DNA of 64,000 nt from a virus: the IMG/VR virus record IMGVR_UViG_3300032315_000774, positions 1 to 64,000 of that record. One strand, written 5' to 3'. Shown here piece after piece: positions 53,174 through 55,395 of this stretch. Numbering within the stretch: the first letter of the stretch is position 1; each line of letters begins with the position of its first letter. Below the pieces are notes generated by a model, which saw only the letters and a program-made list of their open reading frames with translations, was not told the DNA's origin and did no database searches. The position numbers and the translations under genes are program-made.

Positions 53174-53368
53174 CGCAGCAGGTACTGCAGACAGTGCTAT
53201 CCGACTGCCTGCAGTACCATCGACGACGTCGTCGGCTTTCGTCGCTGCTGAGCGTGACGCAGATGCTCTACTGATTGAGCTACACCCCCATCGAAAGGGG
53301 GCGTTCCGTTCTGCCCGGAAGTCTTCTGCAATAACAGCGAACTAGGATACGAACGTCATCGTGCTGCG
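53174..53368 (-). ncRNA. Structured RNA with circularly permuted tRNA-like domain (Y/YrlA-like) no. 2
   Basis: GCAGA-AGAC-TTCCG GGCAGAA CGGAA-CGCCCCC loop GGGGGTG-TA-GCTC AATCAGTA GAGC-A-TCTGC on a long basal stem. Confidence 0.7.
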
Positions 53369-53520
53369 TGGGTTCAGGGTCCTTCGGAACAGTTTGATCG
53401 TCATGCGCTGACCGCCGCTCTACCAGTTGGCGTACCTCCCCACCGATTGAGGAGGGCTGGCATCGAACCAGCAACCACGAGTCAGACTTGCTGATCTTGA
53501 ACTTGAACTTCAGCACCCCG
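53369..53520 (-). ncRNA. Structured RNA with circularly permuted tRNA-like domain (Y/YrlA-like) no. 1
   Basis: CTGAC..GCTGG TTCGATG CCAGC-CCTCCTC loop GGGGAGG-TA..AACTGGTAGAGC..GTCAG; outer limits approximate. Confidence 0.7.
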
Positions 53521-53529
53521 AAGGGATGG

Positions 53530-54291
53530 TTACGCTCCGTTCAGGAACGTGAAGAGCTTGCTCGCGTCGAAGACACCCTCGACCTCGCGTGCGTTGGCCT
53601 CGGCGATGGCCGCCTTGGCCGCGTGCATCAGCTTCTCGATGCGTTCGATCAGCGCGGCCTTCTTGGCCTCGTCCCAAGCACCCGAGAGCTGGAACTCGGT
53701 CCAGCGGCCGATGCGCTTCTGCGTCTTGCGGACGGTGGTCTGCGCGGGGTGCTTGTCCGACGCCGGGACGACCACCACGACCTCGTCGATCGAGGTGAAC
53801 TTGTCGCGTGCGGTGGGTCCTGACGAGGCCACCGTCGCGACGGCGCCGCCGATCACCACGGTCTTCGTGGCGATGAAGTTGACCTGCGGGTTGCGCGTCG
53901 GGATGCGCTTCGCCTGCGCGTGGAGGTCGCGGAAGATCTTCTCCAGCGCGATCAGCGTCGTCGTGGGGAGCTTCACCGTCAGCGCCTGACCGTCGACGAC
54001 GATGGCCGCTGACGCGCTCTGGTTCGCCACGTCGCGCGTGGCCATCAGCTCGACGTGCTGTCGAGTCACGGTGAACGCGCGCTCCAAGATCAGGTCGACC
54101 GTCTGCTCGACCTGCTTCGACTCCGGAGGCAGCCGCTCGCCGTCGTCTTCCGTTGGCTGGTACGTGCGATCCAGCCCAGTGAACTTGTCGGGCTTGTCGA
54201 GCAGCTTGTAGCCGTCGCTGGTGACGCGGTTCGTGATCTCGGCCTGCGCCTTGACCTGGCCGACGAGCGCGGCGAGTTTGATCTTGTTCAT
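53530..54291 (-). CDS. Conserved protein of unknown function, extended helical/beta architecture
   Basis: Strong codon bias, GAGGAG SD; FTGLDRTYQP..DGERLPPESK.V..AN..A.A.IVVDG..LEK..IG.W...LSGA. Confidence 0.85.
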   Translation of the reverse strand: MNKIKLAALVGQVKAQAEITNRVTSDGYKLLDKPDKFTGLDRTYQPTEDDGERLPPESKQVEQTVDLILERAFTVTRQHVELMATRDVANQSASAAIVVDGQALTVKLPTTTLIALEKIFRDLHAQAKRIPTRNPQVNFIATKTVVIGGAVATVASSGPTARDKFTSIDEVVVVVPASDKHPAQTTVRKTQKRIGRWTEFQLSGAWDEAKKAALIERIEKLMHAAKAAIAEANAREVEGVFDASKLFTFLNGA

Positions 54292-54372
54292 GATGTCTCC
54301 TCTTTCGAGGGTAGGTTAGAGGTGGAAGAAGAAGTCGGAATGTGCGAGTGACGCGGCGTTTTTCACCTTGCG

Positions 54373-54444
54373 GCGAAGCGAAGGATTTGAACCTTCTACC
54401 CAATGCTTATCATGCATTTGCTCTACCGATGAGCTAGCTTGTAA
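54373..54444 (-). tRNA. Degenerate tRNA-Ile(GAU) (poor acceptor stem, possible pseudogene)
   Basis: GCTC ATCGGTA GAGC; AATGC ATGATAA GCATT; GAAGG TTCAAAT CCTTC; only 4 acceptor pairs. Confidence 0.55.
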
Positions 54445-54467
54445 GCCGACGTCGGAGCACATTCCTA

Positions 54468-54586
54468 CGGGGTGTGATGGATTCGAACCATCTGGCTTGT
54501 ATGGCCATCGCAGAGCCCTTTGCAGGACGAGAGCGCGACCAGTTTGCAACTTTACATAGTTGGTGAGGCCCAGCCTCAAACACCCC
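54468..54586 (-). ncRNA. tRNA-like RNA with about 53-nt variable-region insert, copy A
   Basis: GGGGTGT/ACACCCC acceptor; GATGG TTCGAAT CCATC T-arm; insert shared with copy B. Confidence 0.7.
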
Positions 54587-54603
54587 TTATTGTCAAAGAA
54601 CCA

Positions 54604-54724
54604 TGGACCTGTGTGGATTCGAACCACTTGCTTGTATGGCCGTCGCGGAACTCTTTGCGGAGCGAGAGCGCGACCAGTTTTCTGATGCCCAGTATCAGTG
54701 GGTTGCCATTACCCGTTCAGGTCC
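54604..54724 (-). ncRNA. tRNA-like RNA with about 53-nt variable-region insert, copy B
   Basis: GGACCTG/CAGGTCC acceptor; GGGT AATGGCA ACCC D-arm; GTGG TTCGAAT CCAC T-arm. Confidence 0.7.
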
Positions 54725-54787
54725 GTTGTCGCCTCGGACTCGCGTCGTCAGCGACGAGAGGATGTATCGCTCAGCTCGTTCGCGATG

Positions 54788-55378
54788 TCAACCGCCTCCG
54801 AACACGCCCGAGCGCAAGATCGTCGACGACGTCTTCTGGCCCGAGCGCAAGAACGTCTGCACTGCCAACGCCAAGGACGCCGCGCTCTGCATGATGAGCG
54901 GCAAGAACTCGCCGGTCTCGCACGTCACCGCGCCCGCTGCCGCCTCGTCGGGGACGAACTGCGGCGACCACCGCACGACGCCCATCTCTCCGTTCGGAGC
55001 GAGCGCGCCGTGCACCAGAGGCACACCGTTCGCCGTCGCGAAGCTGATGAGCGTGCGTCGGGCTTCGATGTTGTCCGTCGCGTCGACCAGCAACGTCGGG
55101 TTGTGAAGCGTGGTCTTGACGTTGTCAGACGTGATCTTGCCCGGGGCTGCCACGTACGATGCGCGCGTTCGACCGAAGTTGAAGTTGGCGCTTCGGACGA
55201 ACGCTTGCGCCTTGTTCACGCCCAACGTCTGGGTGCTGAAGGCTTGCGTGGTGAGGTTCTTGGCTTCGACGCGGTCGAAGTCGACCAGCGTGAACGTCGC
55301 GTCTTCGTTGCGCAGGAGCATGGCCGCATTCGAGCCAAGAGCCCCTACGCCGATGATGTAGATGTGTGGCTGCTTCAT
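54788..55378 (-). CDS. ThiF/E1-like adenylating enzyme
   Basis: IIGVGALGS, VDFDRVEAKNLTTQ, NKA, LVDATDNIEARR, candidate catalytic Cys in VTCE. Confidence 0.9.
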   Translation of the reverse strand: MKQPHIYIIGVGALGSNAAMLLRNEDATFTLVDFDRVEAKNLTTQAFSTQTLGVNKAQAFVRSANFNFGRTRASYVAAPGKITSDNVKTTLHNPTLLVDATDNIEARRTLISFATANGVPLVHGALAPNGEMGVVRWSPQFVPDEAAAGAVTCETGEFLPLIMQSAASLALAVQTFLRSGQKTSSTILRSGVFGGG

Positions 55379-55395
55379 CGTCGCAGCATGACACA

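Follow-up and report, generated by a model that had tools for sequence, protein, structure and literature searches.

What are the two adjacent genes at positions 54468-54724 of the IMG/VR virus record IMGVR_UViG_3300032315_000774 that are built like transfer RNAs (tRNAs), and what is the long extra arm that both of them carry? The window analysed here is the 64-kb stretch formed by positions 1 to 64,000 of this record, and the two elements, termed e1 and e2, lie on its minus strand at the coordinates given in a preliminary description made from the letters of the sequence. That description regarded the pair as tRNA-scaffolded non-coding RNAs, a view that is supported by the present analysis, and as a new class, which was too strong; judged by their genomic linkage to a Ro60-like protein, e1 and e2 seem to vary, with a new topology, the known Ro60/Y-RNA theme, in which YrlA-type RNAs mimic tRNA. 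They are read here, with a probability of about 60%, as Y-RNA-like tRNA mimics whose arm is a putative docking handle for the Ro60-like protein. Both genes belong to a large, uncatalogued RNA family of giant phages.

e1 and e2 possess the tRNA cloverleaf, with a 7-base-pair (bp) acceptor stem, a D arm, an anticodon arm and a T arm. The pair had been described as 120-nucleotide (nt) RNAs with an insert of 53 nt; the pair is real, at 121 nt for e2 and 119 nt for e1, and the insert between the anticodon stem and the T stem measures 54 nt in each. In e2, the acceptor stem is perfect (GGACCUG/CAGGUCC), the discriminator base is A and CCA is not encoded; the D arm is GGGU/ACCC, the anticodon arm is CUGAU-ACUGGGC-AUCAG with C at position 33, and the T arm is GUGG-UUCGAAU-CCAC. 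The acceptor stem of e1 is also perfect over 7 bp and differs from that of e2 (GGGGUGU/ACACCCC), the discriminator is G, the D-like hairpin has a 6-bp stem, the anticodon arm is CAACU-AUGUAA-AGUUG with GUA after U33 in a 6-nt loop, and the T arm is GAUGG-UUCGAAU-CCAUC. The differing but perfect acceptor stems, the UUCGAAU T loops, the D-like hairpins and the irregular anticodon loops (ACUGGGC and AUGUAA) noted at the outset are all present. Minimum free energy (MFE) folds of both RNAs (RNAfold) are a cloverleaf with a long arm; the folding z-score is -3.91 for e1 and -2.66 for e2, and a fold of equal stability was reached by 0 and 2 of 200 shuffled sequences, respectively. When the two genes were aligned, the arms were identical at 47 of 55 columns, against 20 of 44 in the 5' bodies and 19 of 26 in the T arm and acceptor; the insert is therefore the best-conserved part, as had been proposed. 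Neither gene is among the 14 tRNAs called by ARAGORN in the window. The Rfam tRNA model (RF00005) aligns end to end with e2, treating the arm as one long insertion (26.6 bits, cut-off 29), and gives no match to e1 at E <= 10.

The arm of e2 runs, 5' to 3', from a linker (AAAAC) into an outer helix, in which UGGUCG+CGC pairs with GCG-A-CGGCCA, through a loop (UCUC) to an inner hairpin (G-CUCC-GCAA-AGAG-U), which is followed by UCC and, before the T stem, by U-ACAAG-CAA; the conserved CUC lies at 54664-54666 and ACAAG at 54631-54635. e1 has the same layout, with CUC at 54529-54531, an inner hairpin G-UCCU-GCAA-AGGG-C and ACAAG at 54496-54500. The inner hairpin opens at the G after CUC, and its loop is GCAA in both genes. 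The handle thus has two helices, the outer one and the inner hairpin, and two conserved single-stranded stretches, CUC and (Y)U-ACAAG-Y. In a strain about 95% identical, found in other metagenomes, two extra bases are present in the A-rich linker of e2 (window position 54677), and these fit an unpaired, length-variable spacer before the handle.

An exact 18-mer of the arm had 0 matches in IMG/VR, and blastn of the region against 50,697 GenBank phages returned ordinary tRNAs only, at the level of the T arm. Homologs of the ThiF/E1-like protein encoded next to e2 led to Virus Rctr197k and five IMG/VR contigs as relatives. Near their ThiF/E1 gene, these carry unannotated elements in which a T arm begins a few bases past (Y)UACAAG(Y), and ARAGORN called none of these elements. 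Twelve copies located beside ThiF homologs in five phage contigs have perfect 7-bp acceptor stems and the arm layout of e1 and e2, and these first copies show no variation, 12 of 12, in CUCG, ACAAG or the T loop. When the 12 arms were aligned with MAFFT and folded with RNAalifold, just the outer helix and two T-stem pairs were recovered, and the structure for a covariance model, R1, built from the 12 copies, was therefore written by hand.

The arm is a conserved, structured and autonomous domain. The search for homologs with a covariance model, as suggested in the preliminary description, was run with R1; of 76 sources, 56 held a total of 138 matches, 125 of them distinct. In the window, R1 finds e1 and e2 and nothing else. 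Among the 125 distinct matches, standard pairs fill 89.0% of pair cells, compared to 59.8% in shuffled alignments and 32-53% with slid partners, and 706 cells show double changes, compared to 213 after shuffling. The covariation score is 0.64 against 0.19 and was reached by none of 500 shuffles. Double changes occur in 18 of the 19 modelled pairs, across all four helices, and compensatory changes are found at all 7 outer-helix and all 7 inner-hairpin pairs. The outer pairing of UGGUCG with CGGCCA or UGGCCA, seen earlier in the two copies, is confirmed and covaries in the family; the inner pairing of UCGY with GCGA, also proposed then, is replaced in the family by the unpaired CUC (96-98% conserved), the next G opening the inner hairpin. 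ACAAG is conserved at 100, 100, 100, 82 and 100% over its five positions. CUC and ACAAG are the most conserved bases outside the T loop, about eight unpaired bases being conserved in all, and the arm region spans about 54-85 nt in cleanly parsed family members. As for the proposal that the arm is a protein-binding or catalytic domain, protein binding is the best reading, and catalysis finds no support, with these few conserved unpaired bases and no Rfam ribozyme or intron match in the region at E <= 10. It is highly improbable that e1 and e2 are functionless, decaying tRNA pseudogenes that share a duplicated insertion: their irregular anticodon loops would suit such decay, but 125 distinct copies in 56 sources keep their helices by compensatory changes and keep CUC and ACAAG, perfect 7-bp acceptor stems are present in 91 of 130 motif matches, and the position relative to the neighboring gene cassette is conserved.

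The arm also occurs outside of intact cloverleaves. Directly downstream of e1 lies a third element, e3, whose interior is a tRNA-Ile(GAU)-like body with a GCAA hairpin. ARAGORN does not call e3, and the Rfam tRNA model matches its core at 47.2 bits over model positions 4-67 only, because just four acceptor pairs form. The core is flanked on the 5' side by GGAAUGUGC-UCC-GACGUCGGC-UUACAAGC and on the 3' side by AAAAAC-GCCGCGUC-ACUC-GCACAUUCC; in the MFE fold these flanks make a long helix that encloses the core, so that the RNA ends lie within the handle, a layout like that of a classical Y RNA, whose ends lie in its stem. Aligned with the halves of the e2 arm, the 3' flank shares 18 of 20 bases with the 5' half, and the 5' flank shares 21 of 27 with the 3' half. 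Since the e3 flanks are the two halves of the e2 arm, the arm is a module that is either loop-closed within a tRNA, as in e1 and e2, or opened, as in e3. A split handle around two small hairpins, without a tRNA body, is found at L003:7804, L005:7272 and L006:7308 (helix, UUACAAGC ... GAAAC, helix, ACUC, helix) and is orthologous in three related phages. The form in Rctr197k is circularly permuted, running from the T arm through a closed acceptor and the D arm to the anticodon arm, and Rfam YrlA matches it weakly (24.5 bits). In the window, two permuted elements lie downstream of a 253-amino-acid (aa) gene (DUF7873), both without ACAAG; the first matches Rfam YrlA at 20.3 bits (E 0.086, cut-off 69) and the second is more degenerate. 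A loose script search for split handles was noisy, with 134 candidates on the gene strand and 42 on the opposite strand, and missed e3; the split forms counted here are those seen directly.

A module that is seen inserted, split and permuted, and in which the single-stranded CUC and ACAAG could mark places of cleavage or recognition, might be an intron-like or mobile insert that a ribozyme or protein excises to leave a normal tRNA, the permuted and split forms being processed via the same helix. Red algae and archaea have permuted and split tRNA genes, mentioned also in 10.1101/312249, for which processing at a bulge-helix-bulge motif yields normal tRNAs, and the present elements resemble those genes in combining tRNA parts and a flanking helix in several circular permutations. 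However, no bulge-helix-bulge (by eye) and no processing enzyme were seen here, and removal of the arm would leave anticodon loops that are still defective. Splicing as a known intron had been named at the outset as an outcome that would refute the proposal; cmscan of 54300-54800 at E <= 10 gave no intron family and no self-cleaving ribozyme, only tRNA and three chance-level matches. Furthermore, the arm is the best-conserved part of the RNA, and covaries as a folded unit, and the gene linked to it is Ro60-like and does not encode a splicing enzyme. Excision of the arm is accordingly considered quite unlikely.

Decoding by e1 and e2 is also unlikely, as judged from their sequences, because U33 is less frequent in family loops than in ordinary tRNAs, because loops of irregular length occur, and because the phage has its own normal tRNA-Tyr(GUA) and tRNA-Pro(UGG). 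A 7-nt anticodon loop with U33 is found in neither gene, e1 having a 6-nt loop and e2 having C33. Among 93 distinct open-acceptor elements of the family, 54 parse with a 7-nt loop and 24 of these 54 have U33, compared to 923 of 993 ordinary tRNAs of the same loci; 16 further family loops are 6, 8 or 9 nt long. The alternative is that these are working tRNAs, decoding Tyr (e1, GUA) and Pro (e2, UGG), to which the arm has been added as a means of escape from host anticodon nucleases or of recognition by a phage enzyme. A complete cloverleaf with a 7-bp acceptor stem and a canonical T loop is what such a tRNA would have, position 37 is a purine in 45 of the 54 parsed loops, and recognizable, diverse anticodons are present, the commonest types being GUA (7), GUU (5) and CAU (5). 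Several copies with differing anticodon-like loops occur per phage, and two members (L007:451-588, 47 bits; L007:933-1077, 45.6 bits) score above the Rfam tRNA cut-off. Set against the loop defects, the tRNAs already encoded, and the presence of the same arm on RNAs without a tRNA body and on e3 with its four acceptor pairs, these features leave translation by e1 and e2 an unlikely role. The extra stem-loop between the anticodon stem and the T stem is shared with class II tRNAs (Leu, Ser, bacterial Tyr and Sec), whose long variable arm is a simple hairpin of about 13-21 nt; in e1 and e2 this region is 54 nt long, has two helices and an internal loop, and leads into the T stem through about ten unpaired bases. 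The phage itself encodes normal tRNA-Tyr, tRNA-Ser and tRNA-Leu. C33 stands in place of U33 in 65 of the 993 ARAGORN-called tRNAs of viral loci L013-L086.

The proposed partner of the handle is a 607-aa protein with an N-terminal helical-repeat domain and a C-terminal von Willebrand factor A (vWA) domain, Ro60-like by predicted fold only, whose gene lies 4.8 kb upstream of e1 and e2 on the same strand. Pfam gives weak vWA matches only. The protein has at least 674 relatives of about 620 aa, and tblastn against GenBank phages found Virus Rctr197k only, so that no cultured phage is at hand. When an AlphaFold model of the whole protein (34 sequences, pLDDT 83.4) was searched with Foldseek, ranks 1-11 were Ro60/TROVE entries (E 2e-7 to 2e-5, 516-589 aligned columns), including D. 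radiodurans Rsr (TM-score 0.45/0.54) and the Ro60 of phage phiLo. With VIA-align, the vWA domain dominates the list for the whole model, and Ro60 (1yvp_A) is aligned over 418 residues with Z 12.5 and a root-mean-square deviation (rmsd) of 7.1. Folded alone, without the vWA domain (405 residues, pLDDT 87.2), and compared by VIA-align with 48,161 chains, the N-terminal domain places three Ro60 representatives at ranks 1-3 (Z 9.4, 8.7 and 7.9), the next chain having Z 6.4. These models suggest a strongly diverged Ro60-like protein for which homology to Ro60 is likely.

A profile search with the 607-aa protein gave 74 viral loci, many on contigs of 200-600 kb, and 73 genome loci, mostly metagenome-assembled genomes of Myxococcota and Corallococcus chromosomes. 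A strict motif script requiring CUCG, ACAAG, a T arm and a 7-bp acceptor stem together found full elements in 46 of the 74 viral loci (91 matches) and in 14 of the 73 genome loci (18 matches), all on the gene strand. R1 gave 30 matches in 18 of the 73 genome loci, often 100-900 nt upstream of the Ro60-like gene, and nearly all of the R1-positive genome loci fall in a subgroup whose protein is about 40% identical to the 607-aa protein. As a control, 100 viral loci were chosen just for the string TACAAGC..GGTTCGA; R1 matched 4 of these loci (8 matches), and all four are contigs already known to carry a Ro60-like gene. All five related records carry the Ro60-like gene, and 24 of the 136 viral RNA matches lie at most 3 kb before it.

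YrlA RNAs, as described in PMC4201824, are tRNA mimics encoded beside Ro60, and that of M. smegmatis is cleaved by RNase P and then receives CCA. Their order is T arm, closed acceptor hairpin and D arm, with a Ro-binding stem at the RNA ends (PMC4201824 and 10.1101/312249). YrlA and e1/e2 are alike in being tRNA-mimicking non-coding RNAs on the same strand as, and within a few kb of, a gene for Ro60 or, for e1 and e2, for a protein that is Ro60-like by predicted fold; in being modular, with a docking stem, putative in e1 and e2, and a tRNA-like effector part; in occurring as several RNAs per locus; and in having an open acceptor, in M. smegmatis YrlA after RNase P and CCA addition. They differ in that the Ro-binding stem of YrlA replaces the anticodon loop, whereas the handle of e1 and e2 sits at the variable-arm position, and in that YrlA has a closed acceptor and the T-acceptor-D order, whereas e1 and e2 have the normal order, an open acceptor and a closed anticodon arm. 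The conserved bases differ as well, being CUC and ACAAG in the handle and GNCGAAN0-1G near the 5' end in YrlA (Chen et al. 2014, PMC4201824). The Rfam YrlA model (RF02553, cut-off 69 bits) gave no match to e1 or e2 at E <= 10. In Thermus phage phiLo, according to PMC12135203, a Ro60 recognized as a homolog via a UniProt search binds two RNAs encoded adjacently (Yrl1 and Yrl2) as well as the host PNPase, and its proposed role is to hijack this host RNA enzyme. The phages phiLo and the present one both have a Ro60 or Ro60-like protein with RNAs encoded beside its gene; the phiLo RNAs are stem-bulge-stem Y RNAs with a CGAA motif, whereas e1 and e2 are cloverleaves with an inserted handle. The set of genes for ubiquitin-like (Ubl), E1 and JAB proteins in the present cassette is counted as a further difference from both the YrlA and phiLo systems. 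A literature search, with supplements outside its scope, found no published account of the RNA family or the cassette; phage hits of YrlA are tabulated in the supplement to Chen et al. 2014, and these may be relevant to any overlap with the handle family.

Several observations weigh against the reading of e1 and e2 as RNA partners of a Ro60-like protein. On the protein side, Pfam TROVE (PF05731) has no match in the record, including the 607-aa protein at E <= 1, none in the five related records and none among 34 family members at E <= 1; Foldseek on the N-terminal domain alone returned nothing significant, Ro60 ranking 4 and 6 (E 0.14-0.17); and the VIA-align Z scores of 8-9 between that domain and Ro60 go with an rmsd of 11-14 A, a range open to helical repeats through their arrangement alone. 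On the RNA side, the YrlA motif GNCGAAN0-1G is absent from e1, e2 and e3 and occurs in 1 of 125 family modules, and the alignment used for the covariation measures (A6) was itself fitted to R1, which favors the structure. The genomic context is also ambiguous, as the cassette lies within large co-directional tRNA arrays (976 of 993 tRNAs on the same strand; 199 Rfam matches in 139 kb), and strand agreement alone is therefore weak evidence. Finally, ThiF is in most loci the gene nearest to the RNAs, which leaves room for a different cassette protein as the true partner.

This last point is the basis of an alternative in which the RNAs serve the Ubl, E1 and JAB proteins and not the vWA protein, for example as substrates or guides of a ThiF-Ubl sulfur relay or of Ubl conjugation. 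ThiF-Ubl sulfur relays are known from tRNA thiolation, with TtuB/TtuC or Urm1/Uba4. In the viral loci, 96 of the 136 RNA matches follow ThiF by at most 3 kb (median 518 nt). Measured in 41 loci, the first module begins a median of 189 nt past the ThiF stop, and ThiF and JAB are found in 62 and 68 of 74 loci. We regard this alternative as rather unlikely, since no PP-loop thiolase or other tRNA-modifying gene was recognized in the cassette and the RNAs lie directly upstream of the vWA gene in many genome loci; it is, moreover, compatible with a Ro60 partnership.

In the Ro60-partner reading, e1 and e2 would be stable non-coding tRNA mimics, full cloverleaves in which a two-helix handle replaces the variable loop. 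The handle would dock on the 607-aa protein in the manner of Y RNA stems on Ro60. The body, shaped like a tRNA, would probably be trimmed by RNase P and tailed with CCA, like M. smegmatis YrlA, and would imitate a tRNA before a tRNA-binding factor of some kind; the mimics themselves probably do not decode, given the 6-nt loop of e1 and C33 of e2. A bolder and improbable extension is that the mimics act as programmable baits, each copying one tRNA species, often with an altered position 33, capturing the host factor that recognizes that tRNA and bringing it to the Ro60-like/vWA platform, where the Ubl-E1-JAB proteins tag or inactivate it. The targets could then be, for example, an anticodon nuclease of an anti-phage defense, a synthetase or a modification enzyme, and, if true, a giant phage would be practising RNA-guided targeting of a ubiquitin-like kind. 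Ro60 and its Y RNAs have long been puzzling, in particular as to the factors that are drawn in by the effector end of the bacterial RNAs. The family described here adds to that theme a large uncatalogued branch, which comprises no fewer than 125 different RNAs, with 674 or more proteins in the family of the proposed partner. In this branch, the putative docking handle is a portable cassette, found either as a graft on tRNAs that are otherwise complete or as a wrapping around them, a single phage holds arrays of different tRNA look-alikes, and the genomic link to a ubiquitin-like conjugation set is fixed. Such a system offers a way to learn the role of the tRNA-like end, via the tRNA-binding proteins that accompany each mimic. 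It also bears on annotation, as tRNA finders skip the handle RNA genes and the protein is labelled merely 'vWA domain protein'.

Table 1. Features of the locus, with positions in the 64-kb window, and the basis on which each was assigned
Feature	Position	Strand	Description	Basis or occurrence
e2	54604..54724	-	tRNA-like RNA gene	Rfam tRNA; fold; model R1 61.7 bits
e2 extra arm	54628..54681	-	handle	fold; family covariation of both helices
e1	54468..54586	-	tRNA-like RNA gene	fold; model R1 62.5 bits
e1 extra arm	54493..54546	-	handle, layout as e2	fold; family covariation
e3	54337..54465	-	handle in split form around tRNA-like body	Rfam; MFE; flank alignment
Permuted element	53411..53480	-	circularly permuted tRNA-like element (T arm, closed acceptor-like hairpin, D arm)	sequence
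Second permuted element	~53259-53329	-	more degenerate, after the first	
607-aa vWA protein (P0001)	59527..61350	-	first gene of cassette; proposed RNA partner	
294-aa protein	58435..59319	-	cassette gene, no assigned function	homologs in 50/74 viral loci
JAB/JAMM-like protein	57305-57652	-	cassette gene	motifs by eye; homolog in 68/74 viral loci
Ubl-like protein	56955-57308	-	cassette gene, long acidic tail	motifs by eye; detectable in 21/74 viral loci
ThiF/E1-like protein	54788..55477	-	last gene of cassette	PF00899, E 8e-22; 62/74 viral loci

The cassette (Table 1) is found in giant-phage contigs and in Myxococcota genomes and runs on a single strand in the order Ro60-like, 294-aa, JAB, Ubl and ThiF genes; the handle RNAs are encoded at its ends, and e2 begins 63 nt past the stop of the ThiF gene. 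The names of the JAB-like and Ubl-like genes come from motifs seen by eye, Pfam giving no match to either. In the viral loci, the 294-aa gene begins a median of 2.3 kb after the start of the Ro60-like gene, and a protein atlas queried with it returned nothing usable. The 253-aa DUF7873 gene, named at the outset as a co-transcribed neighbor of the pair, was considered as a conserved partner; it was rejected, being present in 0 of 5 related records and 4 of 74 viral loci and having no close relative on a viral contig.

Co-transcription of the pair with its neighboring genes had also been proposed. A scan for promoter-like and terminator-like sites gave 0 and 0, which proves nothing either way on this point. 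Part of the stretch is contained in 20 of 24 listed sequencing runs, mostly freshwater and freshwater-sediment metagenomes and including two RNA libraries. At the level of contigs, the RNA library X13 has one of 8989 nt, which cannot show transcription because the DNA run of the same sample has a contig of equal length; X17 has short contigs, including a 391-nt piece over 54241-54630, which is at most a weak hint.

Two further observations were made on RNA genes outside of the handle family. A complete bacterial RNase P RNA (299.5 bits) and a transfer-messenger RNA (109.4 bits) are encoded within 9 kb of the Ro60-like gene on related contigs of giant phages (L042:17026-17390 and L048:18463-18825). 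In addition, ARAGORN called a tRNA-Arg(CCG) with a 1465-nt intron outside the window (G000 C1 103356-104915); a group I intron could be present there, or the call could be false.

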